The notes below the pieces were generated by a model that did not search any database, was not told the origin of the DNA, and worked only from the letters and a program-made list of their open reading frames with translations. Shown in pieces: positions 7,016-22,430 of a stretch of 64,000 nt of DNA. The position numbers and the translations under genes are program-made. The DNA comes from a virus (taxonomy: Duplodnaviria > Heunggongvirae > Uroviricota > Caudoviricetes), in the IMG/VR virus record IMGVR_UViG_3300024272_001997. One strand, written 5' to 3'. Within the stretch, counting starts at the first letter, position 1; every line of letters starts with the position of its first letter.

Positions 7016-7609
7016 TTAGAAAGGCAGTTCGTCTGCCAGTCCGGCAACCTCATTCCATTCCTCGACAATCGCAGGAATATCGATGAAAGGACGGCTTGCC
7101 ATGTAGTCCGCCATGTGGACACATCTGTCCACATTGGTAAAGGGTCTGTCCTCTTTCTCGGTAGACCACTGACCCATGTGAGCGCAGACAGCGTTCAGAA
7201 GCAGAAAATGGGGTTCGCCGTAACCAGTGACCAGACAGTAATCACGGAAAGCAGTCGCCGCATTTCTGGCGTGATTCTTGTACTCGGCCTTGTCGAAACC
7301 ATCCAGACCATACTTGACAGTATCGTGAATGATACAGGCGACAATGACGAAATCCTTGTATTCTTCCTTCATGTATGCGTAAGAACTCATGCGGAGCAGT
7401 TCTTCGGCGAACATGACAACCGCCTTGGTGTGGCGAACCAGACCGCCAACGCCCTGGGACATCTTGGGGTGATACTTGCCAGAACTGGAAGCACCGTCTG
7501 TCCAGAAGTAGTCGGGAACTCGGTCGATCAGGTATCCCTTGACCGCCATGCGGAGATCCTCGTCCAGGATGAGGGACAGTTCCCTCTCAAAAAGCTTGAT
7601 GTTCTTCAT
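7016..7609 (-). CDS. HD-domain phosphohydrolase (197 aa)
   Basis: Track ORF trimmed to Met preceded by GAGGAATTGATACCC; contains H...HD motif (GKYHP, IIHDTVKYG) typical of the HD superfamily. Confidence 0.7.
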   Translation of the reverse strand: MKNIKLFERELSLILDEDLRMAVKGYLIDRVPDYFWTDGASSSGKYHPKMSQGVGGLVRHTKAVVMFAEELLRMSSYAYMKEEYKDFVIVACIIHDTVKYGLDGFDKAEYKNHARNAATAFRDYCLVTGYGEPHFLLLNAVCAHMGQWSTEKEDRPFTNVDRCVHMADYMASRPFIDIPAIVEEWNEVAGLADELPF

Positions 7610-7656
7610 GGGTATCAATTCCTCTCTCATTTGATGTACTCATTATAGCATAGGAT

Positions 7657-7833
7657 TTAGAGTTTGTCAAGTACTTTTTTAGAAAATTCTGTGTATTCAA
7701 TACACATTTTCAAAGTATCTTTTTCAACTGTCACACGCACAGAACTAACAAGGGGATTTTGTATCATCAGTTCGCCGGCCATTTTCTTGACCTCTGAATA
7801 GGGGATACCCTTACCAATTTCAATTCTAGCCAT
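7657..7833 (-). CDS. hypothetical protein (58 aa)
   Basis: Track ORF trimmed to Met with GGAGGG RBS. Confidence 0.45.
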   Translation of the reverse strand: MARIEIGKGIPYSEVKKMAGELMIQNPLVSSVRVTVEKDTLKMCIEYTEFSKKVLDKL

Positions 7834-7857
7834 TGTTTTTCCCTCCATGGTTCTGGG

Positions 7858-8028
7858 TTACCCCAGAACCACAAAATTTTTGCCGTAGTGGTCGTGAACG
7901 CCTTCTTCTACATTGTAGGTGATGGACAGTTCATCCATGTAAATGACCTTGGAATCACCAAAACCGAGTTCTTCCATGGTCTGAAGCTGGCGGAGCAGTT
8001 CACTAACAGTAATGCACTTTTTATTCAT
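7858..8028 (-). CDS. hypothetical protein (56 aa)
   Basis: GAGGAGGTAACC RBS; MNKKCITVSELLRQLQTMEELGFGDSKVIYMDELSITYNVEEGVHDHYGKNFVVLG; below track cut-off. Confidence 0.45.
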   Translation of the reverse strand: MNKKCITVSELLRQLQTMEELGFGDSKVIYMDELSITYNVEEGVHDHYGKNFVVLG

Positions 8029-8149
8029 GGGGGTTACCTCCTCTTGATTTATAATACAATTATACCACCGATTCCGGGAAAATCAAGTTGGAGTATTGCA
8101 CAAAAAATGCGCCCCAAAAATTGTTGGAGTTGGTTATTTTGCCGAAAAA

Positions 8150-8236
8150 CCGGCCCGCGCGCACGTAAAGGGCCGGCCGAAATTTGTGCAAATTGCACAA
8201 AAACGAAGAAAAACCGGGATTTTTCCCGGTTTTTCT
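8150..8236 (+). ncRNA. degenerate copy of GC-hairpin/terminator cassette
   Basis: Hairpin CCGGCCC-13nt-GGGCCGG then GCCGAAATTTGTGCAAATTGCACAAAAA then bidirectional terminator AAACCGGGAtttttCCCGGTTT; upstream promoter degenerate. Confidence 0.25.
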
Positions 8237-8603
8237 AACTTTTTGCCTTTCTTTTTGCGATTAAAGTCAATTCGTAGGCATTTTCACCAATTTTGAAGCT
8301 AATTTGACGAGTTTTGTTGGTGATTTCCACTGAAACGTAGCCTTTTTCCGCTAAAAAGTGGGCGATTTCCGCAATTACAGCCTCTTTTTCCGGATTTTCG
8401 GTGGGTTTTCGTGCGGATTTGGTGGTTTTTGGCGATTTTGTGTCCGCATTAGCGTTTTTCATAGCCAGTTTGTGTGCTTCTGGACTCAAATCAAAGTCCA
8501 TTTGCTCTCCCCTGTCGATGCATTTATCATCGGCAAGAATGGCTTCGGCTTCGCTTCTGGAACACTTGAGAGAACGCATGATGCGTTCGATTTGGCTATC
8601 CAT
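8235..8603 (-). CDS. hypothetical protein (122 aa), paralog of 11293..11649; TAG is its stop codon
   Basis: Track ORF; shares N-terminal SR(S/E)EAIxLxD(D/E)DKxIDRGE motif with its paralog; stop codon TAG at 8235-8237 followed by the terminator. Confidence 0.6.
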   Translation of the reverse strand: MDSQIERIMRSLKCSRSEAEAILADDKCIDRGEQMDFDLSPEAHKLAMKNANADTKSPKTTKSARKPTENPEKEAVIAEIAHFLAEKGYVSVEITNKTRQISFKIGENAYELTLIAKRKAKS

Positions 8604-8702
8604 GGTGGTTGCCCCCTTTCCTTACTTAGTATAGCACATTTGGGGGGATTTGTCAAGAGGAAAGTTTGGGGGAGAATTTCTCCCCCTCTCCCCTCTCTCT
8701 GG

Positions 8703-9095
8703 TTAGACCAGAGAGAAGAAAGCCTTTCTCTTGTCCTCGGTTCTCTTGACCTGGCCTGCATCAACCATCTGGCGAACCAGAGCGGACATTCTCTGGTTGG
8801 TCATGGTGTCAGGCAGGTTGGGAACCTTTTTCAGCAGTTCGGACACGGTGAACAGCTGATTGGGATTGGCTTCCATCACAGCCAGAACACCGGCCTTGAT
8901 GGTTGCGTTGGCTTCCTGCTGAGCGGTGGGCTTCTTCTCAGCGGAGTTCTTCTTGGCCAGCAGTTCCTGCTCGTGGGCGATGAACTCAGCCAGCATGGGG
9001 TTGTTGGCGACTTCGGGGATGTTCGCAATCATAGCGAACTTCTGAGCCTTGGTCAGCTTGGTGGATGCGGAAGCGGAAGAAGTAGTGTTAGCCAT
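8703..9095 (-). CDS. putative winged-helix protein (130 aa), paralog of 11729..12106
   Basis: Track ORF; about 70 percent identity to paralog over whole length; GAAAGGAATTGATACT-ATG leader. Confidence 0.65.
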   Translation of the reverse strand: MANTTSSASASTKLTKAQKFAMIANIPEVANNPMLAEFIAHEQELLAKKNSAEKKPTAQQEANATIKAGVLAVMEANPNQLFTVSELLKKVPNLPDTMTNQRMSALVRQMVDAGQVKRTEDKRKAFFSLV

Positions 9096-9366
9096 AGTAT
9101 CAATTCCTTTCGGTTTTAGCGACTTGAACCTGTCGATGATTTATTCTGTAAGAGGTGTTCCTCTTTACATTCTTATTATAGCACATTCGGCTCGGTTTGT
9201 CAAGAACTTTTTTTCTTTTTTTTTCTTGACCTTGGAGGGTTGCCCCTCTCTTTTTGTACCCTCATTGTATCACATCTTGGGCGGTTTGTCAAGAGGTTTT
9301 TTCAACTTTTTTTTTCGCTCGGCTCGCTCTGTCCTGCGTTGTTGCCTGTCCCTCACTGACAAGGGT

Positions 9367-9395
9367 ATTATACCATAGCCAGAAGCGGATTGCAA
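9367..9395 (-). promoter_or_regulatory. orphan promoter TTGCAA-17-TATAAT, back-to-back with plus promoter at 9454
   Basis: Reverse complement TTGCAAtccgcttctggctatggTATAAT; no ORF downstream before next promoter. Confidence 0.45.
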
Positions 9396-9453
9396 TAGGC
9401 AAAGTATACAAAATCGGGAGAAATAATTTGTGCATTTTTTTCGCATTTTCCTC

Positions 9454-9482
9454 TTGACAAATTGCTGGGGGTATGGTATAAT
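9454..9482 (+). promoter_or_regulatory. orphan consensus promoter CCTCTTGACAAA-17-TATAAT on plus strand
   Basis: TTGACAaattgctgggggtatggTATAAT; fires toward 3' end of the convergent gene 9569..10006. Confidence 0.65.
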
Positions 9483-9488
9483 GGAAAT

Positions 9489-9576
9489 TCTGCCCGGGCA
9501 CACTCGCGCCCGGGCCGCCGAAATGTCAATTGGTAATTTTGCACAAAAAAGTGAGGGTTGCCCCTCACTCATTTTT
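9489..9576 (+). ncRNA. candidate small RNA: 5' GC hairpin GCCCGGGC-acactcgc-GCCCGGGC plus terminator hairpin GTGAGGGttgcCCCTCAC-tcaTTTTT
   Basis: Starts about 7 nt after -10, ends at intrinsic terminator that also terminates the minus gene; no ORF. Confidence 0.35.
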
Positions 9577-10006
9577 GAATGACCGTTTCCAGATTGATTC
9601 CGGCGCTGACTTCTTCCCAGTTCTCCACATTGTCAACATGGACAACCTTGTGACAGCCATTGACCATCATCAGAGAATAGGTTGCGTTCTCATAACCGCA
9701 CAGAACCTGGACAACCTCTTTGCCGATTGCCATGCCGAAGCCGGCTTCCCATGCCGTACCAGAGTCGGAATACATACCGAAGTTGAGAACCATGACCACA
9801 TCACAGTCATGGATGGCTTCAATGTCCATTTCAAAGACACGCTTTGCCCAGTCAGAGTTCGGCAAGTCCCATGCGTTGGGAACTTCATGCTCCTGGGGTA
9901 CATGAACCGGATAACCTGCGGAGCGCAGACGAGAGATGGTTTCCTTGTAGACTACCAATTCAGTAGCATTGAAGAACGGCGAAGCCAGATAGATTTTCTT
10001 TTTCAT
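9569..10006 (-). CDS. nucleoside 2-deoxyribosyltransferase-like protein (145 aa)
   Basis: Track ORF trimmed to Met after GGAAAGGAACTGAACACT; KIYLASPFF...MVLNFGMYSDSGTAWEAGFGMAIGKEVV matches the NDT/Rcl family signature. Confidence 0.65.
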   Translation of the reverse strand: MKKKIYLASPFFNATELVVYKETISRLRSAGYPVHVPQEHEVPNAWDLPNSDWAKRVFEMDIEAIHDCDVVMVLNFGMYSDSGTAWEAGFGMAIGKEVVQVLCGYENATYSLMMVNGCHKVVHVDNVENWEEVSAGINLETVIQK

Positions 10007-10062
10007 AGTGTTCAGTTCCTTTCCTTTTTGTATTCTCATTATACCATGAGAAAAGGCTTTTG

Positions 10063-10398
10063 TCAAGCCTTTTCTACTCGGTAGAAGAAAAATTTATTGA
10101 CAATTCTTTTTGCCTTTTTGTCGTGGCAAAAATAAATACTTCCGAACAGATGTGTGGAATCGTCCATCAATTTGAGATTTTGAATTGCTTCCAATTTCAC
10201 AGGCTTGCTTACATTGCGGAAGAGTTTCCAGAAGAAAACGAATGGGAAAAGCAGGATTTCCAGAATAATTTCCAGAATACCAGTGATGAGCAGATAGGGA
10301 AGCTGGATGAAGTTCATCCATCTCTGGCCCCACAGTTCTTCGTGAATGAAAGACAGGATAATGTATCCGGCAAGAATACCTAATAAGAAATTCAACAT
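10063..10398 (-). CDS. membrane protein (111 aa)
   Basis: Track ORF trimmed to Met with GAGGTG RBS; two TM helices. Confidence 0.5.
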   Translation of the reverse strand: MLNFLLGILAGYIILSFIHEELWGQRWMNFIQLPYLLITGILEIILEILLFPFVFFWKLFRNVSKPVKLEAIQNLKLMDDSTHLFGSIYFCHDKKAKRIVNKFFFYRVEKA

Positions 10399-10462
10399 TT
10401 TACACACCTCATTTGTTTTTCTTTATTATAGCATGAATTGGGGGTTTTGTCAACCCCCAATT

Positions 10463-10771
10463 TTACGGAAGTTCATCGGGATAGCAGAAGCATTCCCATG
10501 CGATACTCTCCCAAGTTTCCATACACTTGGAAGTGTTGCACAGCCAGATCGTGACAAAGAAAGTATTGACAACAGGCAGACCAATCATCAAAGCGCACTG
10601 GATGAGACTGATGAAAGTCTTTGCCCAGTTCGTAGGCTGTTTGACCCTGACCATGCCCTTGGCCTTGCACTCCTTAAAAGTGGGAATCATAGCCAGACTG
10701 GCGAACACGAACAGATACAGGAAAGCCAGAATTGCGCTTGCGACATAGACCCAGAAGAAAATTTCTAACAT
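10463..10771 (-). CDS. membrane protein (102 aa)
   Basis: Track ORF trimmed to Met with GAGGT RBS; 3 hydrophobic helices. Confidence 0.5.
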   Translation of the reverse strand: MLEIFFWVYVASAILAFLYLFVFASLAMIPTFKECKAKGMVRVKQPTNWAKTFISLIQCALMIGLPVVNTFFVTIWLCNTSKCMETWESIAWECFCYPDELP

Positions 10772-10843
10772 AACATTTACCTCACTCATTTAATTTTCTT
10801 TATTATAACATAGGTTTGCGAATTTGTCAAGAGTTATTTTGTA

Positions 10844-11056
10844 TCAAAGGGACATTTTCTGTCCCCAGATACAACGCTCAAAGGCAGGCTTGTAGACATT
10901 GTTCCAAATGAACTCCATCTCGTTGTAAGCTTCTCTGTCCTCCACAATCATTGCGTAGAACTGAACTGCTCCGAACGCCTGATGAATCCACAGTTCTTTG
11001 CCGTCCTTCTGGCACTGAGCCAAAAGCCAATCGATGTGCTGTTTCAGTTTATCCAT
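10844..11056 (-). CDS. hypothetical protein (70 aa)
   Basis: Track ORF trimmed to Met after AGGAGGTAATCACC; upstream Mets lie in promoter. Confidence 0.5.
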   Translation of the reverse strand: MDKLKQHIDWLLAQCQKDGKELWIHQAFGAVQFYAMIVEDREAYNEMEFIWNNVYKPAFERCIWGQKMSL

Positions 11057-11175
11057 GGTGATTACCTCCTTGATTTGTACCCTAATTATAGCATAGGTTT
11101 CGGGATTTGTCAAGGGGTTTTGCAAAAATAATTTTTGCAAGAAAAATTGCTGAAATAGGGGGTTAGTAGCGAAAT

Positions 11176-11234
11176 GCCGGGCGCCACACTCGTCAGCGCC
11201 CGGCCATTATACCACATTCTTTTGAAAATGTCAA
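11176..11234 (-). promoter_or_regulatory. class-1 promoter immediately abutting GC hairpin GCCGGGCGC-cacactcgtca-GCGCCCGGC (inverted-orientation copy of the cassette)
   Basis: TTGACAttttcaaaagaatgtggTATAAT then hairpin 1 nt later; no terminator follows. Confidence 0.4.
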
Positions 11235-11263
11235 GCATTATTTTTTCGTCAAAATGCACAAAA

Positions 11264-11294
11264 AATCTGTCCGCGCTGGGCGGACAGATTTCTC
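11264..11294 (-). terminator. terminator for gene 11293..11649
   Basis: TCTGTCCGCccagcGCGGACAGA followed by TTTTTTGTGC on minus strand. Confidence 0.55.
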
Positions 11295-11649
11295 AGGAGC
11301 GGGGACACGCAAGGGTGACTTTGTACTTCGTGCCGTTGTGGGTGAACAGGAACTCACGCTCGGCATTGGTGACATTGAACTCGGTGATTCCCAGTCCATT
11401 CAGACCTTCCATCATTGCGGAACACAGCTCTGCCTTTTCCGGCTTGGCTTTCTTCTCTCTTTTGGTGGTGGTCTGCTTGCGGTCTGCCTGTCGTGCTTTC
11501 TTTGCGCCCGCTTCCAGTTCGGGGTCAAGCTCAAACAACTTTTCGCCCCTGTCGATTCGCTTGTCTTCGTCCATCAGTTCGATGGCTTCCTCACGGCTGA
11601 TGTTCAGCGACTTCATCAGCTTCTGGATTTTCTCTTCCATCGGGGTCAT
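11293..11649 (-). CDS. hypothetical protein (118 aa), paralog of 8235..8603
   Basis: Track ORF. Confidence 0.6.
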   Translation of the reverse strand: MTPMEEKIQKLMKSLNISREEAIELMDEDKRIDRGEKLFELDPELEAGAKKARQADRKQTTTKREKKAKPEKAELCSAMMEGLNGLGITEFNVTNAEREFLFTHNGTKYKVTLACPRS

Positions 11650-11728
11650 CTCCTTTCTGTACTAAGTATAGCACAGATTGCTGGATTTGTCAAGGGGAAA
11701 TTTTGGGGGAGTTTCCTCCCCCATCGGG

Positions 11729-12106
11729 TTACGCAATGGCGAAGAACGCCTTGCGCTTGTCCTCGGAGCGGACAACCTGACCCGCATCGACCATCTGACG
11801 GACGAGTGCGCTCATGCGCTGATTGGTCATGGTGTCGGGCAGACCGGGCACTTCCTTGAGCAGTTCGGACACGGTGCGCTTCTTGCCGTCAGCCAGAACC
11901 TCCAGAACGGCGGTCTTGATTACGGCATTTGCCTCCTGCTGGGCAGTGGGCTTCTTGTCGGCGGAGTTCTTCTTTGCCAGAAGCTCAACTTCGTGGGCGA
12001 TGAACTCGGACAGCATGGGGTCAGCCTTGACGGCGGGCAGTTCAGCCAGAATGGCGAACTTCTGAGCCTTGGTCAGACGAGCGGAAGAAGAAGTAGTGTT
12101 AGCCAT
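11729..12106 (-). CDS. putative winged-helix protein (125 aa), paralog of 8703..9095
   Basis: Track ORF trimmed to MANTTSS... matching its paralog's start. Confidence 0.65.
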   Translation of the reverse strand: MANTTSSSARLTKAQKFAILAELPAVKADPMLSEFIAHEVELLAKKNSADKKPTAQQEANAVIKTAVLEVLADGKKRTVSELLKEVPGLPDTMTNQRMSALVRQMVDAGQVVRSEDKRKAFFAIA

Positions 12107-12284
12107 AGTATCGATCTCCAATCTTGCGGTAGGTCGCAACCCAAATTTGATTTATCTGTAAGAGGTGTTCCTCTTTACATTCTTATTGTATCACATCTTG
12201 AGCCAGTTGTCAAGAGGTTTTTTGAATTTTTTTTTGGCTTTCACTCCACCTAGTCCCTAATACAGCCTCGGGATTGGTTCACAT

Positions 12285-12380
12285 TTATATTCCGCACAAC
12301 GGAGCGACCGTGCGGTCGAGGACTTTGTCGTCATGGTCTGACACGACTCTCGTGGGTCTTGTCTCAACGACTTCTGCCAT
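12285..12380 (-). CDS. possible micro-protein (31 aa)
   Basis: Sits 17 nt downstream of a class-1 promoter with the conserved leader GGGTACAAAAGAGGGAAGC-ATG; MAEVVETRPTRVVSDHDDKVLDRTVAPLCGI. Confidence 0.25.
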   Translation of the reverse strand: MAEVVETRPTRVVSDHDDKVLDRTVAPLCGI

Positions 12381-12689
12381 GCTTCCCTCTTTTGTACCCT
12401 TATTATAACACATCTTGGGGAGTTTGTCAAGAGGTTTTTTTTCAGATTTCCTTCTGTTCGGTCATCTTGTGGTCACTTGCTCCGCAAGCCCTACCGCCTC
12501 CGACCACGGCTAACCTCTTGACTTCTCTTACATTGTATCACAACTTGGGGGATTTGTCAAGGGGTTTCTTGAAGTTTCTTCAAGAAAGTTGCGTGCCGGA
12601 AGGTTGGGTCGTACACAGCCTCTGCCAACAGTTCGACGCCTAGCGTGGGTTTCCCAACTCCCGAGGCGTTCCCTCCCCTTGACACCAAT

Positions 12690-12718
12690 ACTATACCACA
12701 TCTGCCCCCAGATTGCAA
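12690..12718 (-). promoter_or_regulatory. orphan promoter TTGCAA-17-TATAGT back-to-back with plus promoter at 12776
   Basis: Same architecture and flanking sequence as 9367-9395. Confidence 0.4.
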
Positions 12719-12775
12719 TTGGCAAAATACACAAAATCGGGAAAAATAATTATTTATTATTTGTGCAATTTTCCT

Positions 12776-12805
12776 CTTGACAAATTGGCTGGCGGTGTGG
12801 TATAA
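12776..12805 (+). promoter_or_regulatory. orphan consensus promoter on plus strand (18-bp spacer)
   Basis: CCTCTTGACAaattggctggcggtgtggTATAAT. Confidence 0.6.
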
Positions 12806-12811
12806 TAAAAT

Positions 12812-12875
12812 TTCGGCGCCCATCAACCGTGGGCGCCGCGCCGAAAAAGCCACCCCAAAAATGGGGTGGCTTTCG
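12812..12875 (+). ncRNA. candidate small RNA: hairpin CGGCGCCCA-tcaaccg-TGGGCGCCG then GCGCCGAAAAA then terminator hairpin AGCCACCCCAaaaaTGGGGTGGCT
   Basis: Same architecture as 9489..9576 with compensatory stem changes. Confidence 0.35.
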
Positions 12876-12877
12876 TA

Positions 12878-13306
12878 TCAGCTGGGCAGACCTCCGCCCA
12901 TAACCTGAATCACCTTCAAAACCATGTCCTCGGCTGACATACACTCTTCGGGTTCCTCGGGGGGCAGGAGTTCGGCTTTCTGCTGTTCGGCCAGGGCGGA
13001 CATGACCTCGAAAATGTTGGGGATGATTTCTCGCTCGACCTCGAGTTCGGGTTCGGGGATGGGTTCCTCGTCCTGTTCCCAGAGGTGCTTCATCAGCACC
13101 CCCAGAATCATCAGAGAGAACTCGTCCGTGGCGAACTGGTCGGGGTGGTTCACCAGAGCCAGAACCTCGCCGGTGTAGCCGTCGCACACATGGGCATGAT
13201 TGCCGTTCGTGTCAGCTCTCAGCAGTTCCAGGATTGCGATTTCGGGGTCGTCAGTCTTGACAGTGACCTCAGCGTCGGAGTAAAAAACAGAGATTACATA
13301 CTTCAT
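12878..13306 (-). CDS. acidic hypothetical protein (142 aa)
   Basis: Track ORF; AAAGGAAAGGAACTGATACCT-ATG leader. Confidence 0.6.
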   Translation of the reverse strand: MKYVISVFYSDAEVTVKTDDPEIAILELLRADTNGNHAHVCDGYTGEVLALVNHPDQFATDEFSLMILGVLMKHLWEQDEEPIPEPELEVEREIIPNIFEVMSALAEQQKAELLPPEEPEECMSAEDMVLKVIQVMGGGLPS

Positions 13307-13405
13307 AGGTATCAGTTCCTTTCCTTTGTTGTACCAACATTATAACATGGATTAGTTGGTTTGTCAAGAGGTTTTTGAAAAATTTTTTTTAGGGGATGGG
13401 GCGGA

Positions 13406-14077
13406 TTACTCCGCCCACTTGGGGAAACACTTGTTGTATTCCTTGCCCTTGGCATCCCAGCAATGCACATTCTTGGTGAACTTCTTGTGTGTCCGCAGAC
13501 AGCGGACAAAAATCTGCATTTCAATCATGGCATCAGCCAGAGCCGTGTGTTCCTCGATGAAGTCGGGGTCGTTAGTGATGAACGCATACACGGCTTCCGC
13601 AGTGGTCGCACAAGTGTTCTTGCTTCTGGACTGGAAGCCATTTGCACGGCAAAACTTGGCATAGCCTTTCTGGTGGCAGATGGTCTGGGTTGCCATCAAC
13701 CAAAGGTCGATGAACTCGAACTCCTCAGCCAACGCACGGCAGGCAGTTTTGGTAAGGTCGAAAGCGGAATTGTAAGCACAGATGTACTTGACGCCGTAGA
13801 AGTGGCACAGATTGGAAACAATGCTGACTGCCTCGGCTTCGGTAGTCACCGCAGACATTTCACCGCTTGCCAGTCTCTTGGCATAGATGGGGAAGTTCTT
13901 CTTGGCATAGTCATCGTTGCGGATTTCCTCATAGTGTTCCATCACCAGAAGATTGGTGGTTGCGAAGATGTTACCCTCTCTGTCATGGATGGTACAGCCG
14001 ACATTGTACATTCCGGAGGGAGTGGAAGCACCGCCTACAGTCTCGGTGTCCAGAGTACAGAAAATTGTCTTATTCAT
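13406..14077 (-). CDS. DEDDh (DnaQ-like) 3'-5' exonuclease (223 aa)
   Basis: Track ORF trimmed to Met after AAAGGAAAGGAATTGATACCA; Exo I FCTLDTETVG, Exo II YNSAFDL, Exo III HTALADA. Confidence 0.75.
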   Translation of the reverse strand: MNKTIFCTLDTETVGGASTPSGMYNVGCTIHDREGNIFATTNLLVMEHYEEIRNDDYAKKNFPIYAKRLASGEMSAVTTEAEAVSIVSNLCHFYGVKYICAYNSAFDLTKTACRALAEEFEFIDLWLMATQTICHQKGYAKFCRANGFQSRSKNTCATTAEAVYAFITNDPDFIEEHTALADAMIEMQIFVRCLRTHKKFTKNVHCWDAKGKEYNKCFPKWAE

Positions 14078-14145
14078 TGGTATCAATTCCTTTCCTTTGA
14101 TGAACTTATTGTATCACAAAATAGCCGGTTTGTCAAGGGATTTTT

Positions 14146-14595
14146 TTAGAATCCCTGACACATTTTTTCCAGCTTCGCCCAGTTGACGGAGAAGACATTG
14201 CGGAAACCCTCAAACTCCATCTCGGCGTAGTCCATGAAGTTCCGCAGTTCAGAGTAGCAGGGCAGATGGCCATCGAACCGCAGACCGAACTCACGAGCCA
14301 GCTTCTTGCACCACAGTTCATCCAACTGGTCTTCGGTGAACTTCTCGTGGGTCTTGGGGTTGATAACCACACGGACTTCCTTGTGGTAGGTAGTCTTCTC
14401 AGTGCGGACGACCTGCACCAGACCATACTCCCGGGCAGTTTCCAGACAGACGGAAGCGGAATAGGGATAGCGACCATCGGAGAAGCGGTCACGAACCTCA
14501 TTGAACTGCTTCTTGGTGAACTCAACAGGCAGAGCCTTGAAGGTTTCACGAGTCTTGGGAGCCAGTGCCATCATAGAAGAGAAATTGTGTGCCAT
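14146..14595 (-). CDS. hypothetical protein (149 aa)
   Basis: Track ORF preceded by class-1 promoter at about 14660-14688. Confidence 0.6.
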   Translation of the reverse strand: MAHNFSSMMALAPKTRETFKALPVEFTKKQFNEVRDRFSDGRYPYSASVCLETAREYGLVQVVRTEKTTYHKEVRVVINPKTHEKFTEDQLDELWCKKLAREFGLRFDGHLPCYSELRNFMDYAEMEFEGFRNVFSVNWAKLEKMCQGF

Positions 14596-14969
14596 AATAT
14601 TTTACCTCATTTCATTTATTTGGTGGGGCTTACCATCGTTTCCCTCACCTTGTATTTGTATTATAGCATAGATTGTTTGGTTTGTCAAGAGGTTTTCTCA
14701 AAAAATTCCGGACTTTTTTGATTATCTCCGATACTTCTTGCCTCAAAAGACCTGTTTTAGATTGTTGCCCCAGCTCATTCCTTGTACCCTCGGGCAAGGA
14801 CTATGTCAGTCCGCAACTTCTCTCTTTCCGCTTTCTCTTGGCGATTTTCTCCGTCGAGGTTCCCCTCTTGACACAGTCATTGTACCACAGATTTTGGGAT
14901 TTGTCAACTCGTTAAAATACACAAATAATCGCCGAAAATAAATGCCTAGGTTGGTTATTGTGCCAAATT

Positions 14970-15058
14970 CGGCGCGCCTGGACCGTGGGCGCGCCGCCGA
15001 ACTTTTGTGCAAAATGACGAAAAATCCCTTTCCATTTCTGGAAAGGGATTCCAAAATC
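14970..15058 (+). ncRNA. degenerate hairpin/terminator cassette
   Basis: CGGCGCGCC-tggaccgtg-GGCGCGCCG then GCCGAAC...; terminator ATCCCTTTCCAtttcTGGAAAGGGAT; upstream promoter weak (TATTGT -10). Confidence 0.25.
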
Positions 15059-15428: not shown

Positions 15429-15503
15429 AGTATCAATTCCTTTCAGTTCTCTTTTGTTGTAATTATTGTATCATAGGTTTTCGGATTTGTCAAGAGGAAA
15501 TTC

Positions 15504-15944
15504 TCAGATTTCTCTGAGAATTTCCATGATGTTCTGTACATCGTGGGGGATGCCAGTCCATCCAGTTCTGTTCCGTTCCTCATCATCGAACAGAATGTCG
15601 AGAGGGGTTCGGCAGAACATTTCCTTAGGAGTGCCATAGGGAACGATGTTGATTTCATCCCAATGGACGGAGGGCAGATGTTCCGCAAGCCAGACCTTTT
15701 TGACTTCGGTAACTCTTGCGTTGTACTCTTTGCTTCCGCTCTTGGAAGTCCAGGAGATAACGGAGAGCCGATAGCCTTGCTTCTGGAGTGCGTTCAGCTT
15801 GCGAGCCAGAGCGGAGAGGTTCAGCAGAGGTTTTGCGATTGCGTAGGGAGTGGTATCTTCAGCTTCCAGATAGGGGAGCCAGTTCTTGACACCGTAGAGG
15901 TCAGCGATTGTGCCGTCCATGTCGAAGTTAATTGTAACAGTCAT
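15504..15944 (-). CDS. HAD-superfamily 5'(3')-deoxyribonucleotidase-like protein (146 aa)
   Basis: Track ORF; N-terminal FDMDGTIADL (DxDGT motif I); size and motifs fit the NT5C family. Confidence 0.65.
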   Translation of the reverse strand: MTVTINFDMDGTIADLYGVKNWLPYLEAEDTTPYAIAKPLLNLSALARKLNALQKQGYRLSVISWTSKSGSKEYNARVTEVKKVWLAEHLPSVHWDEINIVPYGTPKEMFCRTPLDILFDDEERNRTGWTGIPHDVQNIMEILREI

Positions 15945-15994
15945 TTGATTCAGTTCCTTTCCTTTTTTGTACCTTAATTATAACACGGAATACC

Positions 15995-16195
15995 TCATTT
16001 GTCAAGAGGTATTCCAACAATTTTTCTGATTTCTTCATCTTTTTTGTAGTGTGTGAAAGACTTGTCAAAGCAACATTCCACGATCCACAAATCATCTCCG
16101 GTGGAGTAGTTCACGACTTTCCACATTGTACCATGTTCGGGGAACACCAGACCGCACCGCACATGAGTCAGGGATCTACATTTAATTTTATCCAT
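15995..16195 (-). CDS. hypothetical protein (66 aa)
   Basis: Track ORF; AAGAGGTGAGATAA-ATG. Confidence 0.5.
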   Translation of the reverse strand: MDKIKCRSLTHVRCGLVFPEHGTMWKVVNYSTGDDLWIVECCFDKSFTHYKKDEEIRKIVGIPLDK

Positions 16196-16250
16196 TTATC
16201 TCACCTCTTGATTATTGTATCATAGTTTGGAGATTTTGTCAAGCCCTTTT

Positions 16251-16811: not shown

Positions 16812-16930
16812 TTTGTGTTCCTCTTTCCGGGTTGCCCCTTGATTTATAAGCCTAGTATACACTATAAATCACGATTTGTCAAGCATTATTTTGGGATTTT
16901 TCAAAAAAAGTTTTTTGTGCAAATTGCCTA

Positions 16931-16959
16931 TTGACAAATTGGCTGGGCTGTGGTATAAT
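16931..16959 (+). promoter_or_regulatory. orphan consensus promoter on plus strand
   Basis: TTGACAaattggctgggctgtggTATAAT. Confidence 0.6.
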
Positions 16960-16965
16960 GGAAAT

Positions 16966-17030
16966 AACGCGCCGGCTGGGTCGTGGGCGGCGCGCCGAAA
17001 AATAAAGTGAGAATTTCTTCTCACTTTACA
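16966..17030 (+). ncRNA. candidate small RNA: hairpin CGCGCCG-13nt-CGGCGCG then CCGAAAAA then terminator AAGTGAGAAtttcTTCTCACTT
   Basis: Third intact copy of the cassette. Confidence 0.3.
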
Positions 17031-17208
17031 GCTTGGTTCCAGAAGGTGACCGGAAAATCATTTCAGTTTTCTTGTATGTGATTTCTGCGGTGGCTCCGCA
17101 ACCACATTTGAATTTGCGATACAGCTGATGGGAAGTTTCTCCCTCGTAAACTACCTTGAACTGTGCGGTGCTTCCGCAATTAGGACATCTCTCAACCATT
17201 ATTATCAT
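17026..17208 (-). CDS. zinc-ribbon protein (60 aa)
   Basis: Track ORF trimmed to Met downstream of TSS; CPNCG...CGCG. Confidence 0.5.
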   Translation of the reverse strand: MIIMVERCPNCGSTAQFKVVYEGETSHQLYRKFKCGCGATAEITYKKTEMIFRSPSGTKL

Positions 17209-17255
17209 TTCCTTTCCTTTTGTTGTACTTATTATACCATGTAATTGGGGATTTG

Positions 17256-17534
17256 TCAATCCCCAATTTCACAACATTCGTAAGTATTTTGCGGGATGAT
17301 GCAGTCCATCACATCAAACTTCTGTGCGTTGCCATGAATGAGATAGACATGAGCATTGGGAAACTCCCTCTGAATGTCTTCCAGATAATTGTAGAAGCCA
17401 TTACACAGTTGTTCAAACCGTTCCTGTCTTTCGTCAATGCGTTCCTCGCACATCTGAGCGAGTGCCCGCAACTGTTCTTTGTTCATGTTTTTGACATTGT
17501 CGCAGAGGTCTGCGAATCTAACTGGATTCAACAT
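17256..17534 (-). CDS. hypothetical protein (92 aa)
   Basis: Track ORF trimmed to Met after AAAGGAGAATGATACC. Confidence 0.55.
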   Translation of the reverse strand: MLNPVRFADLCDNVKNMNKEQLRALAQMCEERIDERQERFEQLCNGFYNYLEDIQREFPNAHVYLIHGNAQKFDVMDCIIPQNTYECCEIGD

Positions 17535-17539
17535 GGTAT

Positions 17540-17686
17540 CATTCTCCTTTCTTGAACTTCTGGCGATTGTATCGCTTGCCACTTTCTACCTTGCTTCCTC
17601 TCTTGCGGAAGTTCAGCCACTGCTGAAGTTCTTCGCCCTCTTTCTTGAATACTCGGCGATCCAGTTCCTTTTTCTTCTTTGCCATT
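17540..17686 (-). CDS. small basic protein (48 aa, Lys/Arg-rich)
   Basis: AAGGAGTTGACAACA-ATG; MAKKKKELDRRVFKKEGEELQQWLNFRKRGSKVESGKRYNRQKFKKGE; below track cut-off; class-1 promoter at about 17716-17744. Confidence 0.45.
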
Positions 17687-17763
17687 GTTGTCAACTCCTT
17701 TGTTTTTCTATAAATATTATAACATACTTTTTATTTATTGTCAAGGGGAATTTTTCATTCCCC

Positions 17764-18078
17764 TTACATTCTCAGCAGAAACGCATACTTTTCATTGTTC
17801 TTGCGGACTCTGTTCTTCAATGCCACAGGCATCTTTTCATTGTAGTAGAAGGAAGAAACCTGAGCCATCGTTCCCATGTATCCGGTGATGAGGGTATCAT
17901 CCTTGACTACCAAAATGATTCCGGTATCAGTCAGCTTTCTGGTTGCGTATTCGCCATGCCGGTAGCTTGTCTGTTCTCTGATGATTTCATTGAATCCCAG
18001 ATGTTGGATGCAAGCGGTGAGTCTGTCAATCCGTTCTTCCTTAGCGTGGTAGGTCATTTCAAATCTCATAGTAGCCAT
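17764..18078 (-). CDS. hypothetical protein (104 aa)
   Basis: Track ORF; AAAGGAGATAAAAACA-ATG. Confidence 0.55.
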   Translation of the reverse strand: MATMRFEMTYHAKEERIDRLTACIQHLGFNEIIREQTSYRHGEYATRKLTDTGIILVVKDDTLITGYMGTMAQVSSFYYNEKMPVALKNRVRKNNEKYAFLLRM

Positions 18079-18164
18079 TGTTTTTATCTCCTTTTGTTTT
18101 CCTTTTTTGTACCTTTATTATAACATGAGTTTCGGGATTTGTCAAGGGGTTTTTTATTTATTTT

Positions 18165-18344
18165 TCAAAACCCCATCAGACAGAACAGAATCATAACAAC
18201 CAGACCTGTGAGGGTCAGACCCAAGGCCGCAAGGAAGTTTTCAAACATTTGCTTGTAATTCTTGCGATTGTCCACAGGACACCAGTCTGCGTAATAGATG
18301 TTCCGGCAGATGCGGAAGCGGATGTATTTGAACAGTTTCTTCAT
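18165..18344 (-). CDS. small membrane protein (59 aa)
   Basis: Track ORF trimmed to Met after AGAGGAG; C-terminal TM helix. Confidence 0.45.
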   Translation of the reverse strand: MKKLFKYIRFRICRNIYYADWCPVDNRKNYKQMFENFLAALGLTLTGLVVMILFCLMGF

Positions 18345-18411
18345 GGCTCTTGGCTCCTCTCTTTTGTTGTCTTCATTATAACACAAAAGAGGCTTGTTGT
18401 CAAGCCCCTTT

Positions 18412-18687
18412 TTAGAAAATTCTAATAATTTCATCGTCGTAAATGTCATTTGTACCCATGTCATCAAACTCAATCCAGACCTGCTGCCCCAGTTCGAAGG
18501 ATTCTCCCTCTTCCAGTTCCCAGACCCAGACCTCGCCAGAAGCATCCTCAAAAGCAACAGCCTCTGCATTGACTTCGCACACAGTAGCACTTACTTCATT
18601 AGCATCACTGTAGAGACAGTCTACGAGCATCCATCCGCACACCATAGCCAGAGCCAGCATTCCTACGCACAGTACTTTTCTAATCAT
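18412..18687 (-). CDS. secreted/membrane-anchored acidic protein (91 aa)
   Basis: Track ORF trimmed to Met after GAAGGAGATAATGACA; N-terminal hydrophobic signal. Confidence 0.5.
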   Translation of the reverse strand: MIRKVLCVGMLALAMVCGWMLVDCLYSDANEVSATVCEVNAEAVAFEDASGEVWVWELEEGESFELGQQVWIEFDDMGTNDIYDDEIIRIF

Positions 18688-18851
18688 TGTCATTATCTCC
18701 TTCGTTGTTTGTACCTGTATTGTATCATGAATTATGGGATTTGTCAATCGTCAAAATACACAAAAGAATTGCGTTTTTTATTTGCTGAGTTGTGCATTTC
18801 GCCGAAGTCTAGGCAGGTGGCGGTCGTGTGCGGAGACAAGTAAAGGTCTGC

Positions 18852-19070
18852 TTATTTGCAGACCTTCATGATTAGTCTCTCATAGCTTAGTCCTGCCACA
18901 GCACACAGAGACCGCAGGTTCTCTTTGACGTACAGCTTCTCTGCATAGGCAAGTGTGCCCTTCGGCTTGTCCATCATGCGCATGATGTAGTTGTACTGAT
19001 AGGTCTCGCGCAGGCTAGGCTTGCGCTCTGTGATGATGTCGAGCATCTTGTTGATGGCTGTCTTGTTCAT
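18852..19070 (-). CDS. hypothetical protein (72 aa)
   Basis: Track ORF; AAAGGAGGCACACACA-ATG. Confidence 0.5.
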   Translation of the reverse strand: MNKTAINKMLDIITERKPSLRETYQYNYIMRMMDKPKGTLAYAEKLYVKENLRSLCAVAGLSYERLIMKVCK

Positions 19071-19083
19071 TGTGTGTGCCTCC

Positions 19084-19251
19084 TTTACTTGATGGTGATG
19101 GTGGTGTGCTTGGTGTACTTGCTAGTCTTTACATCTACGATGGTATCCTGGTAGGCTCTGTTGCTGATGCTGTGGAACTCTACGGTGGTGTTCTTGTCTT
19201 CTACCTTGTTCAGCAGAGCGATCAGTTCAGCGACGGTCATGGTGTTCTTCA
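19084..19251 (-). CDS. hypothetical protein (55 aa)
   Basis: GTAAAGGAGATACACACT-ATG; MKNTMTVAELIALLNKVEDKNTTVEFHSISNRAYQDTIVDVKTSKYTKHTTITIK; below track cut-off. Confidence 0.4.
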
Positions 19252-19424
19252 TAGTGTGTATCTCCTTTACTCTTGGGTTGTGTCCCTCTCTCTTTGTGTC
19301 TTTATTATAACATTACAGGAGTTATTTGTCAAGCTTTTTTTTATTATTTTACACACTTTTTTTTCTACAGCCTAGCCCTACGGGCCAGTTAGGGAGCCTG
19401 TGGGTCGTGGTCGGTGGCTACTCC

Positions 19425-19796
19425 TTACAGAGTAGCCATTACCTTAGCAAGCTCTTCAGTACTCATGCTCTTGTAGTGTTCCATGATAGCCTTGAGCATC
19501 TTGTTGCGCTTAGTCTCTTCTTCTCTCTCTGTGTTGCGCTGTGCTCTGTACTCGTCACGCTCAGCCTCTGTGTCGAACCACGTGTACTGTCCGTAGAGGT
19601 AGCCAACCTTCTTGCCCTGTGCGGTGTAGATGTTGATGATGCCTTTGTTGTTGTTGATGTACATGACCTCGGACCAACCACCTTCGTTGTGGATGTCATA
19701 GATGTTACGCTTGGGGATGTTGTGGGCTTCGATGTAGTCCTTGGTGTAGAGCTTCTGTCCGTTGATGTGGTACAGTTCGTTTACGTTGTGCATCAT
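19425..19796 (-). CDS. hypothetical protein (123 aa)
   Basis: Track ORF; AAAGGAGATAATCACT-ATG; class-1 promoter at about 19850-19878. Confidence 0.55.
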   Translation of the reverse strand: MMHNVNELYHINGQKLYTKDYIEAHNIPKRNIYDIHNEGGWSEVMYINNNKGIINIYTAQGKKVGYLYGQYTWFDTEAERDEYRAQRNTEREEETKRNKMLKAIMEHYKSMSTEELAKVMATL

Positions 19797-20185
19797 AGTG
19801 ATTATCTCCTTTACTTTGTGAGGTGTGTTCCTCTGTTTTTTGTAGCTTTATTATAACACACGGGTGAGAGTTTGTCAAGGGGTTTTAGGAAATTTTTTTA
19901 TTATTTTTTTTCTTTGGAATGTGGCAAAATTTTCTCGAACCTCTCAAGATAACGCAAAATCGGCTCTGCGCGCACGTCGCCGAGCCGAGCAATTAGGGGG
20001 TGCTTTGTAGGGGGTGGGTATCTGTCATGTGTCAGAGAGTTTAGAGACATGGACAATAGACTCTGTATTTTCTGCCGGATGAAAAACCGGGGGTGTATTT
20101 CGGGAAAAACTTTTTTTTCGATAGGCCAAAACTTTTGCGCTGGGCAATACAATCTTGAAATCAATTTTCAATTTCGGAATACGAT

Positions 20186-20226
20186 TCTGGGATAAAAAAA
20201 AGGAGAACGGTATTTTACCATTCTCC
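20186..20226 (-). terminator. rho-independent terminator of leftward operon 22364-20235
   Basis: Minus strand AGGAGAAtggtaaaataccgTTCTCCT followed by TTTTTTTTT. Confidence 0.65.
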
Positions 20227-20234
20227 TCAAATTT

Positions 20235-20738
20235 TTACTGGCGCGCAAATGTGACTGCCGTCGCACTGGTTGGGTCGGCGCAATTGCTTGTAACATATGT
20301 AATTGTATCGTTCATAACGCTCCAATTAGCCTCTGTGTTTCCCAAGATTCGTCTCAATACTTCCTCGTCCAATGTTACACTGAAGGAGTCCCCTGGCATC
20401 GCGTAGGCAGAGGCCGCCGCAAGCGTCTCTTCTTCTCTTGGATCTTCAAAGACAGTATTCATTCTGGCAAAATAGTGCCAAACATATCCATATCTATCTT
20501 CGCAAGTTCCAATGTAGTCGCAATCCATCCAAACCTCGTCCGGTAAATCCCAACCGGTACCCCAGGCCACAATATCCCAACTTCTCTTGGCGTGGCGATT
20601 ATTGCCATCCAAATCTACAACACCCCAGACCGTTGGTAAATTATCCTGGAGTCCTACATGCAGCCAATCAATAACATGGTCATTGATAGTCACAACTTCG
20701 CCATCTCTTGGCAGTCTATACTTATAAATTTTCTGCAT
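20235..20738 (-). CDS. hypothetical protein (167 aa)
   Basis: Track ORF; 17-nt overlap with upstream AbrB-like gene. Confidence 0.6.
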   Translation of the reverse strand: MQKIYKYRLPRDGEVVTINDHVIDWLHVGLQDNLPTVWGVVDLDGNNRHAKRSWDIVAWGTGWDLPDEVWMDCDYIGTCEDRYGYVWHYFARMNTVFEDPREEETLAAASAYAMPGDSFSVTLDEEVLRRILGNTEANWSVMNDTITYVTSNCADPTSATAVTFARQ

Positions 20739-20976
20739 TTTGCTTTTCCCTTTCAGCCTCAGTTGCTTCTTTATCCAATCTTACACATAAAAACCAGCTA
20801 TTGTCAATAAAAGCAGTAAAATATTCTACTCTATCGCCAATTTCAATTTGGAACTTATTTCTCAAATGCGCCGGGATGATAATTCGACCAGAACCGTCAA
20901 CCTTGTAATTCATGTTCTCAGGAATCAACTGAACACCATTAATCCATCCGCTTTGTGGCATTGGTACAACCTCCAT
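20722..20976 (-). CDS. AbrB/MazE/SpoVT-family swapped-hairpin DNA-binding protein (84 aa)
   Basis: Track ORF; GRIIIPAHLRNKFQIEIGDRVE matches the AbrB/MazE domain signature. Confidence 0.6.
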   Translation of the reverse strand: MEVVPMPQSGWINGVQLIPENMNYKVDGSGRIIIPAHLRNKFQIEIGDRVEYFTAFIDNSWFLCVRLDKEATEAEREKQNAENL

Positions 20977-21250
20977 TCTTATAGAAAATACACATCATGC
21001 TACAGTTTCCATCGCCTGTTTCGCACGGACTGTAACCATATTGTTCTATTAGATCCAGAATGTGCGGACAGCGCTCCACAAACATCCGGAAGTAATCATA
21101 TCCATACATATCTAAAATGCGGCGAGCCTTATAAAAATCTCGTTCTCGTCTGTAATCCTCGGTCATTGGATACCATGCGGCCGACATACGCTCACGAGAT
21201 CCTTCCCACATTTCTTCCACTTCTAATAAAATACTTACCCACTTATCCAT
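20939..21250 (-). CDS. hypothetical protein (103 aa)
   Basis: Track ORF overlapping both neighbours. Confidence 0.5.
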   Translation of the reverse strand: MDKWVSILLEVEEMWEGSRERMSAAWYPMTEDYRRERDFYKARRILDMYGYDYFRMFVERCPHILDLIEQYGYSPCETGDGNCSMMCIFYKNGGCTNATKRMD

Positions 21251-22022
21251 CCTTAAGCTCCTTAGCTTTCACAACATTTTCCAAGAGAGCCAATCGTGTC
21301 AATAAACCAACACCTCCGGGGACTGGAGTTACATTGCGCCCCTCGGTATTGTAACAATCTCCAACTAGCTTTCCATCTACAAAATTTATGCCCACATCGA
21401 CAACTGGAACATGAATTGGATAACAATTCAAAAATCCCGGTTTGCCGACGGCGCTTACAATCAAATCACTACTATACAAATGATTTGACAATTTGGAATG
21501 ACTATGACACAAGGTGACCGTTGCGTCCCTATCAGTCATCATTTTTGCGAGAGGCTTACCGACAATATCACTTCTGCCGATAATCATGACTTCTTTACCT
21601 TCAAAATTGAAACCACAATAATCCAAATAATTCATAATTCCAAGAGGAGTTGCGGGTTGGAATAAACTATCACATCTAAATCCATCCACATCTTTTTCTC
21701 TGGGGATTGCGGCCTGCGCGACCTTGACGCGGATATGGGGCGGGAGTGGTAGTTGCACTATGACGCCGTCATAAAATTCAACCATATGCTCTAATTGGTC
21801 ATCTAATTCAAATTCAGTGGTTTCTGTGGGATAAAAATAAGTGTGTGCGGTGATGCCGATTTCATCACAATCTTTCATCTTATTTCTAATATAACGATTT
21901 GATGCTTCATTCTCACCAACTTGGACAATTGCTAGGGTGGGAGGAAATTCCATTTTAGAAACTTTTTCCTTCAACTCTTGTTTGCGTTCATTTACATAAC
22001 TCTTAATATCCTTTAGCTCCAT
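21243..22022 (-). CDS. folD: bifunctional 5,10-methylene-tetrahydrofolate dehydrogenase/cyclohydrolase
   Basis: Track ORF 259 aa; LAIVQVGENEASNRYIRNKMK, DGVIVQLPLPPHI, KDVDGF, IGRSDIVGKPLAKMM, DVGIN, PVPGGVGLLT all match conserved FolD motifs. Confidence 0.9.
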   Translation of the reverse strand: MELKDIKSYVNERKQELKEKVSKMEFPPTLAIVQVGENEASNRYIRNKMKDCDEIGITAHTYFYPTETTEFELDDQLEHMVEFYDGVIVQLPLPPHIRVKVAQAAIPREKDVDGFRCDSLFQPATPLGIMNYLDYCGFNFEGKEVMIIGRSDIVGKPLAKMMTDRDATVTLCHSHSKLSNHLYSSDLIVSAVGKPGFLNCYPIHVPVVDVGINFVDGKLVGDCYNTEGRNVTPVPGGVGLLTRLALLENVVKAKELKDG

Positions 22023-22227
22023 CGTCGCTCCATCCTTCCGGTAAAAAACAATCTAAAAGTGCCTCAAGCACATTTGCGGCCGCGAATATTGGGCCACCAA
22101 TAATGAAAATCAATCCTACTGCCAATCTATCACCTTCCGATAAATCTTTACACAAAGGTGCATATTCAATCATTGCCAGGAGCGACATAACAGCCCATAA
22201 AATGGTAATCACTATCGTTTGTGCCAT
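22003..22227 (-). CDS. small membrane protein (74 aa)
   Basis: Track ORF; two TM helices. Confidence 0.5.
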   Translation of the reverse strand: MAQTIVITILWAVMSLLAMIEYAPLCKDLSEGDRLAVGLIFIIGGPIFAAANVLEALLDCFLPEGWSDDGAKGY

Positions 22228-22394: not shown

Positions 22395-22430
22395 TTATTA
22401 TATCAAAAAATTTTTTCTTTGTCAAGTTTC
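22395..22430 (-). promoter_or_regulatory. class-2 promoter TTGACA-17-TATAAT (spacer aagaaaaaattttttga) for leftward folD operon
   Basis: Near-identical inverted copy of the rightward promoter at 22509-22540. Confidence 0.55.

Follow-up and report, generated by a model that had tools for sequence, protein, structure and literature searches.

What do five enzyme genes in the putative early region of a phage do together? The question is raised by a stretch of 64,000 nt from the Caudoviricetes record IMGVR_UViG_3300024272_001997 (in the following, the window). Between positions 7016 and 22022, it contains genes for FolD, a nucleoside 2-deoxyribosyltransferase (NDT), an NT5C-like HAD phosphatase, an HD-superfamily hydrolase and a DEDDh exonuclease. 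An earlier note on this DNA had described the five as an early gene set enriched for nucleotide-pool enzymes and had compared the set with phage modules that remodel the pools of deoxynucleoside triphosphates (dNTPs) or synthesize modified bases. All five open reading frames (ORFs) do exist; they lie on the minus strand, at the positions proposed there or close to them, and the start of the HD gene is probably at position 7609. We propose that the set represents ordinary functions for nucleic-acid breakdown, deoxynucleoside salvage and folate support of canonical DNA, a reading to which we assign a probability of roughly 45%. The searches for genes in this phage covered about 84 kb, i.e., the window and 10 kb on each side, which is less than half of the genome.

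FolD (259 aa, 21243..22022, minus strand), a methylene-tetrahydrofolate dehydrogenase/methenyl-tetrahydrofolate cyclohydrolase, was identified by matches to Pfam and PDB. It scored 86.9 bits with PF00763 and 134.7 bits with PF02882, for which the cut-offs are 32.8 and 27 bits (E values of 2.4e-39 and 1.5e-24 for the two domains), and it matched FolD structures in the PDB with an E value of 3e-44. In the alignment to PDB 6v6y, the sequences YxxxK, QLPLP, KDVDG, GRSxIVGxP and PVPGGVG were all present, which we take to be the catalytic and cofactor motifs. The protein stayed under every NCBIfam equivalog cut-off, its best score being 192 bits versus cut-offs of 333-544 bits. Because it is short and remains below these cut-offs, it was read as an old phage lineage and not as a recent copy of a host gene. 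The top match in the phage collection was MT835556 (43% identity), an unannotated and unverified record in which the long ORFs gave no useful context.

NDT (145 aa, 9569..10006, minus strand) matched PF05014 with 68.5 bits (cut-off 28.8 bits, E value 7e-19) and, over its whole length, the type II enzyme of Bacillus psychrosaccharolyticus (PDB 6evs, E value 2.6e-15). Its sequence DSGTAWEAG aligned to DTGTAWELG of 6evs, and the glutamate of the DxGTxxExG motif, presumably the catalytic nucleophile, was matched. The CMP N-glycosidase 4jen was a further match, with an E value of 1.3e-4. NDT is a putative base-exchange enzyme, which may move deoxyribose between bases. Homologues are widespread in phages of Lactococcus, Lactobacillus and Enterococcus, but the NDT of this phage is only about 27-37% identical to those of cultured phages. 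A version with 62% identity was found on the contig k141_408664 of ENA ERZ27297761 (L066; 483,844 bp) among genes for PcfJ, a type IV secretion system pilin, RNA ligase, CinA and DFP. Judged by these neighbors, the context resembles a conjugative element or a giant mobile element and appears to be outside this phage group.

The NT5C-like HAD phosphatase (146 aa, 15504..15944, minus strand), a putative 5'(3')-deoxyribonucleotidase, was assigned via PF06941 and phrog_2643. The match to PF06941 was marginal (25.1 bits, cut-off 24.8 bits) and included only residues 50-131, while phrog_2643 was matched with an E value of 2e-7. Most of the listed metagenomic homologues carry a precomputed PF06941 match. 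The HAD motifs I-IV (DMDGT with D8, D10 and T12; S64; K107; D120-D121) did not vary among 16 sequences, the most distant of which had 43% identity. Neither the sequence nor the family profile yielded a match in the PDB. The specificity for deoxynucleoside monophosphates (dNMPs) is putative.

The HD-superfamily metal-dependent hydrolase consists of 197 aa when translation starts at Met-8 (7016..7609, minus strand, ORF to 7630), which is probably the true start and was also called in the source contigs. It matched PF01966 with an E value of 2.4e-9, and the extended pattern H...HD...H...H...D, a putative two-metal motif, is invariant. The earlier note had called the protein an HD phosphohydrolase and had named the DatZ-like dNTPases of Z-genomes as one of the possible comparisons for the gene set. 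This comparison found no support. The nearest solved fold to the predicted model was the HD nuclease domain of YhaM (PDB 9h3f), which was closer than dNTPases, and neither its sequence nor its fold placed the protein nearer to dNTP triphosphohydrolases than to the remaining HD enzymes. A search of the PDB with the family profile gave no meaningful match. YhaM, a 3'-deoxyribonuclease/exoribonuclease of Bacillus subtilis, has an OB domain (residues 20-90), whereas the HD protein analyzed here is an HD domain only, with 197-204 aa. On the basis of the model, the protein is thus better described as a YhaM-like hydrolase, away from DatZ. Among the window ORFs scanned with Pfam, none matched a family of the adenylosuccinate-synthetase type (PurZ) or the MazG type (MazZ).

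The DEDDh (DnaQ-like) 3'-5' exonuclease (223 aa, 13406..14077, minus strand) was recognized from its motifs and its predicted fold, and no Pfam or NCBIfam match was obtained at E <= 0.01. An exhaustive search yielded 905 relatives, and D10, E12, D107, H177 and D182 were invariant across 76 aligned homologues. The AlphaFold (AF2) model had a predicted local distance difference test (pLDDT) value of 95.2. Foldseek matched it to ERI3, REXO2, TREX1, DnaQ and the exonuclease domain of DinG with E values of 1e-4 to 1e-3, and the family profile gave weak matches to the PolC exonuclease, DnaQ and Exo X. As judged from the models, both the HD and the DEDDh protein look like hydrolases acting at the 3' ends of nucleic acids. 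The view that all five enzymes act on nucleotides or on one-carbon supply is acceptable as a generic grouping of early genes, but it may not extend to HD and DEDDh, with their likely action at 3' ends. Five of about 33 early ORFs are also not unusual for a phage of such size.

The early position of the genes, as far as sequence can show, was corroborated. In the window, 24 perfect sites of the type TTGACA-N16-19-TATAAT were found, whereas 0.14 would be expected by chance. All 24 of these sigma-A-type promoters are located at 6.5-22.5 kb, and 20 of them are on the minus strand. Most have an extended TGn -10 element together with the -35 sequence TTGACAAA, and repeat analysis revealed that this extended promoter unit stands upstream of most early genes. 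A divergent promoter pair (22397-22425, minus strand, and 22509-22537, plus strand) parts the early from the late arm. Its leftward member, a consensus promoter TTGACA-N17-TATAAT (22397..22425), is at the start of the first leftward early operon, which includes folD, and the next perfect minus-strand promoter downstream is found at 19850-19878. Consensus promoters on the minus strand are also located directly upstream of each of the genes for the NT5C-like protein (15977..16005), NDT (10038..10066) and HD (7642..7670). The DEDDh gene is preceded by a copy of the promoter repeat (14106..14146, minus strand, repeat family D2) with the near-consensus sequence TTGACA ... TACAAT. In addition, the window has 42 ORFs on the minus strand, 33 of which lie at 5.6-22.4 kb, and none of the 42 contains an in-frame TAG, whereas 89 are present in 21 late ORFs. 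The dense host-type promoters and this difference in codon use are the basis for regarding the region as early.

Conservation was analyzed with a scan of viral contigs for the HD family, which yielded 19 loci. Eleven representative lineages (ten from the scan and L014) with HD proteins of 49-75% identity were used for comparison. The NT5C-like gene was present in all 11 and the DEDDh gene in nine of them. The small proteins p130 and p122 were also found in nine lineages each, p157 in six, and most other early genes in one to five. NDT was present in none of these 11 IMG/VR lineages, and the order NT5C-like, DEDDh, NDT, HD was found again in two further contigs. As the trio is kept across lineages while NDT and FolD come and go, NT5C-like, DEDDh and HD form a conserved syntenic early core, and NDT and FolD are variable additions. 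Several thousand metagenomic homologues were found for the HD and the NT5C-like proteins.

In its tightly packed operon, folD stands third behind two small ORFs (22212-22364 and 22003-22227), and it is followed on the same strand by genes for a Cys-rich protein of 103 aa (20939-21250), a MazE/AbrB-like protein (20722-20976) and a DUF7352 protein (20235-20738). The order of these four genes is kept in sister phages with head proteins of 73-89% identity.

Gene content and code usage indicate that the phage is a member of the SPbeta/phAss-1-like code-15 group of large gut phages. Phage phAss-1 (OQ749652) was placed in the 'Caudoviricetes code 15 clade' (PMC10607447). It shares with the phage analyzed here the use of TAG as a sense codon in late genes, a tape-measure protein of similar length (3,149 residues versus 3,129 codons), SPbeta-type head genes (46% identity for both the major capsid protein and the terminase), an NT5C-like gene (40% identity) and DEDDh genes, of which phAss-1 has two paralogues. 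In contrast, its genome of 136 kb has no homologue of HD, NDT or FolD, and it is annotated with ThyX, NrdD, NrdG, Nampt, PRPP synthase and 36 tRNA genes, none of which is present in the window. More distant is the SPbeta-like Enterococcus phage EF1 (MF001358), with 40% identity for the capsid protein and 37% for FolD. In EF1, the genes for ThyA (34.97-35.83 kb), dihydrofolate reductase (DHFR; 37.59-38.09 kb) and FolD (39.82-40.67 kb) lie within 6 kb, with two ribonucleotide reductases nearby. The folD gene of the window thus differs in its company, as it is part of an early operon with three proteins of unassigned function. The first 50 kb of the 142-kb EF1 genome encode no homologue of HD, NT5C-like, DEDDh or NDT, and stop codons are not recoded in EF1 (PMC10607447). 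Relatives were found by protein-level searches only; in 50,697 phage records, megablast detected no match to the region or to the head genes.

Building on the identities of the genes, their catalytic motifs, the early promoter architecture and the conserved synteny, we infer the substrates, the order of the steps and the functional link between the genes as follows. Transcription of the early arm by the host RNA polymerase would begin at some two dozen consensus promoters and precede the use of the recoded late genes. DEDDh and the YhaM-like HD protein would attack the 3' ends of nucleic acids, mainly host DNA or RNA, and degrade them to mononucleotides, from which the NT5C-like phosphatase would strip the phosphate to give deoxynucleosides. 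NDT, in this phage and some sister lineages, could then swap bases and rebalance the precursors toward the composition of the phage. FolD would interconvert 10-formyl-, methenyl- and methylene-tetrahydrofolate and thereby support the synthesis of thymidylate and purines, and possibly also the formylation of the initiator tRNA. On the whole, precursors would be taken over and salvaged to make canonical DNA. In function, the nearest parallels are the ThyA-DHFR-FolD block of EF1 and the pre-early genes of T5. In T5, host DNA is degraded under the control of the pre-early gene A1, and Dmp dephosphorylates dNMPs (bioRxiv 10.64898/2026.04.02.716235). The likeness to A1/dmp is functional only, i.e., early degradation of host DNA and a dNMP phosphatase that turns nucleotides into nucleosides, and no T5-like phage was found among the homologues of HD or the NT5C-like protein. 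T5 excretes the products, whereas the phage analyzed here also has NDT, which could reuse them.

Several points weigh against the salvage reading. Dephosphorylation of dNMPs works against salvage unless a deoxynucleoside kinase acts afterwards, and neither the window nor its flanks yielded such an enzyme. An endonuclease that could begin the breakdown of host DNA was not identified. The NT5C assignment is marginal by sequence and lacks sequence support in the PDB. HD and DEDDh might just as well act in replication, recombination or RNA processing. Thymidylate genes accompany folD in a single relative lineage, that of EF1; on other FolD-bearing viral contigs, no homologue of ThyA or DHFR was found within 10 kb. 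In addition, the cultured phages that have a member of the HD family are mainly phages that replace thymine. Lastly, the view was limited to less than half of the genome.

The last observation on gene distribution leads to a different explanation, namely that the genes belong to a system of base replacement or hypermodification. HD and the NT5C-like protein would then remove dTTP or dTMP, and FolD would feed methylene-tetrahydrofolate to a dUMP or dCMP hydroxymethylase encoded elsewhere in the genome. HD homologues are indeed confined to few groups among the 50,697 phage records. The Bacillus records comprise SPO1-like phages (SPO1, SP8, SP82G and others), the CP-51 group (CP-51, JL and Shanette) and four further records of unchecked group; the others are an Exiguobacterium herellevirus, Clostridium phage c-st, the haloarchaeal virus HGTV-1 and 52-kb C. 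perfringens phages. The HD protein of the window shares 33-39% identity with SPO1 gp32.6 and with the homologues of gp32.6 that SPO1-like and CP-51-like phages encode. The gp32.6 gene is located 8 kb from the dUMP hydroxymethylase gene of SPO1, and the HD gene of CPAS-15, one of the C. perfringens phages, is part of a block with genes for a ThyA-like protein, a glycosyltransferase, a dUTPase, a P-loop kinase and a thymidine kinase. To our knowledge, the enzyme that removes dTTP or dTMP in hydroxymethyluracil (HMU) phages has not been assigned to a gene, and gp32.6 is unannotated. Thymine is replaced by HMU in SPO1-like phages and in CP-51 (PMC4113786), and a dTTPase and a dTMPase are known products of HMU phages (PMC8989533). 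These Bacillus phages make up most of the Bacillus matches and group together, and because of this the pattern may reflect descent. The association between HD and HMU is thus a real lead, but it is confounded by the shared descent of the Bacillus phages and at odds with a fold that is nearest to a nuclease and not to nucleotide hydrolases.

The gene searches also spoke against a modified-base module. The tblastn searches with SPO1 gp29, EF1 ThyA and the ThyA-like protein, kinase and deaminase of CPAS-15 found nothing in the window, its two 10-kb flanks and the fetched loci of relatives, and the same was true for a homologue of NrdD and a match to the ThyX fragment of phAss-1; the fetched loci also gave no dUTPase. 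The companions expected in an HMU-type module, a dUMP hydroxymethylase of the ThyA family, a dCMP deaminase and a dNMP kinase, were thus not found in the sequence searched. For the window, the statement of the earlier note that PurZ, thymidylate synthase and hydroxymethylase are absent was borne out by the Pfam scans and tblastn, and no kinase, deaminase, dUTPase or DpdA was found there either. The relatives point to a canonical dTMP cycle, with a ThyX annotation in phAss-1 and ThyA and DHFR, next to FolD, in EF1. DHFR is needed only where a true thymidylate synthase makes dihydrofolate. The frequency of NDT homologues in phages of lactic acid bacteria counts against modified bases as well. 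Furthermore, four-base palindromes are underrepresented in the whole window (GATC 131 observed versus 235 expected, a ratio of 0.56; TTAA 338 versus 484; CGCG 41 versus 91), and GATC (19 versus 58, 0.33) and TTAA (11 versus 44) are even more strongly depleted in the early arm. This avoidance hints, if weakly, at an exposure of the DNA to restriction enzymes and is another point against base replacement. Taken together, the modified-base module of the earlier note found no support within reach, and we regard base replacement as distinctly unlikely. Very unlikely, in our view, is its most specific form, in which the trio and FolD would be the front end of a thymidine-exclusion system, HD would be the dTTP or dTMP remover of HMU phages, and these gut phages would contain a non-canonical pyrimidine.

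Another explanation is a function in end processing, apart from nucleotide pools. DEDDh and HD would then be 3' exonucleases for replication, recombination or proofreading, or for the trimming or repair of phage tRNAs, the HAD protein would be a 3'-phosphatase for damaged ends, and FolD and NDT would be independent accessories. The YhaM-like fold of HD and the DnaQ/TREX/REXO2-like fold of DEDDh are in agreement with this possibility, as are the retention of the trio with or without NDT and the location of SPO1 gp32.6 in a replication cluster, among genes for DNA polymerase, single-stranded DNA-binding protein, exonuclease and ligase. The genome of phAss-1 contains 36 tRNA genes in addition to the HAD gene and the two DEDDh paralogues; the window, in contrast, has no tRNA gene. 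The genes are also located in the promoter-dense immediate-early arm, far from any recognizable replication gene, and the family matched by the HAD protein is NT5C and not one of the polynucleotide phosphatases. We consider end processing to be unlikely, albeit worth keeping in mind. The early expression from individual promoters in a fast-evolving region, which is typical of anti-defense loci, would also suit a role in counter-defense, in which nucleotide-based immune signals would be degraded by the hydrolases, or the set would refill pools that dNTP-depleting host defenses drain. The fold matches of DEDDh include REXO2/Orn-type enzymes, which degrade dinucleotides, but the resemblance to phosphodiesterases is weaker than that to YhaM. 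No match to described anti-defense families was seen, and nothing ties the genes to a particular host defense system, so that we give this idea little credence.

The window itself consists of two parts, a GC-richer part at about 6-22 kb (GC about 0.46) and an AT-rich part at 22-64 kb (GC about 0.34). The genuine genes of the GC-richer part are on the minus strand, and the long plus-strand ORFs there are shadows; the plus-strand ORFs 144-620 and 1976-2647 are likewise shadows of minus-strand genes. The two sets of genes differ in GC content at third codon positions (0.56 in early versus 0.275 in late genes) and in the choice of glutamine codons (CAG:CAA 101:36 in early genes, CAA:CAG 323:110 in late genes). 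The same split, with a GC-richer early arm, is present in phAss-1 and the sister phages, and the dense promoters of the early arm were also seen in relatives. Beyond the genes already described, the only recognizable domains of the early side are DUF6291 with a helix-turn-helix and a YunG-like family, the latter from the source contigs, in addition to the MazE/AbrB-like fold and DUF7352. A module is duplicated about 3.0 kb apart (8235-9224 and 11293-12234, 71-81% identical DNA, promoters included) and encodes the small proteins p122/p118 and p130/p125, which have no recognized function but are conserved in relatives to the same degree as the enzymes. Within the leftward arm, three units are oriented on the plus strand (9454-9575, 12777-12870 and 16931-17025), and a copy of the hairpin is found at 14965-15001. 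Each unit has a consensus promoter, a GC-rich hairpin (TTCGGCGCGCC...GGCGCGCCGAA), a second hairpin and a T-run, and would yield RNAs of about 60-90 nt that are antisense in direction to the early genes; they had no Rfam match.

The AT-rich part is the late structural block. It encodes a terminase, a portal and, like Bacillus phage SPbeta, proteins that belong to YonB, YonD_N and YonG_N of Pfam. TAG must be a sense codon in this block, because the block reads through only under that reading. Under this code, the 21 late ORFs (plus strand, 22400-64000) all end with TAA. The in-frame TAG codons include 36 in a tape-measure-like ORF of 3,129 codons (39284-48673, plus strand) and six in an ORF of 1,866 codons (48774-54374, plus strand). 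In the terminase region (23650-26603, plus strand), the standard code gives the ORFs 23665-24864, 24864-25097 and 25101-26114, the latter two of which fuse to 24840-26603 with four TAG codons. ARAGORN predicted no tRNA gene, suppressor tRNAs included, within the window, and an Rfam scan of the window was likewise empty. In the relative L010, a gene for a class-I peptide chain release factor (12287-13369, 360 aa, PCRF and RF-1 domains) is located about 0.6 kb past a homologue of a 531-aa Cys-rich protein that is encoded upstream of the window in the phage analyzed here. This release factor fits a code-switching machinery.

The same phage occurs in many metagenome assemblies. Because the lengths of contigs with this phage or a close relative cluster at 164-185 kb, the window is probably about one third of the genome. 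The downstream 10-kb flank contains tail-type late genes; the upstream flank has called genes without a recorded Pfam family, two of which were scanned with Pfam and gave no match. A metagenome scan anchored on NrdD of phAss-1 retrieved only near-identical phAss-1 genomes. One record, IMGVR_UViG_3300032167_000002 (402 kb; L050 and L054), has two differing HD loci, one near 40 kb and one near 244 kb, which are 75% and 71% identical to the query, and the second locus matches a separate contig of 176.6 kb. Its interpretation as a single 402-kb megaphage was rejected, as it is probably a chimera of two phage genomes. The close relatives L040-L044 (75-88% identity for the capsid protein) are found in metagenome-assembled genomes (MAGs) labelled Acutalibacteraceae, Treponema, Bacillota, Mollicutes and Eubacteriales, and a homologue of the NT5C-like gene is located in a 'Bacilli bacterium' MAG. 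The labels are inconsistent and the phage contigs in these MAGs are probably mis-binned, and therefore the labels do not fix the host.

Phage auxiliary genes for nucleotide and one-carbon metabolism and the group of recoded gut phages are both already known. If the reading as breakdown, salvage and folate support is true, the phage would be another large phage with its own salvage and folate genes, which would be useful for annotation and unsurprising. The early arm beside the recoded late genes clearly illustrates the proposed role of recoding in the timing of the translation of lytic genes. Of modest added value are the definition of an early core of NT5C-like, DEDDh and HD genes across a widespread group of recoded gut phages, the corrected description of the HD protein and a testable link between the HD family and phages that replace thymine.

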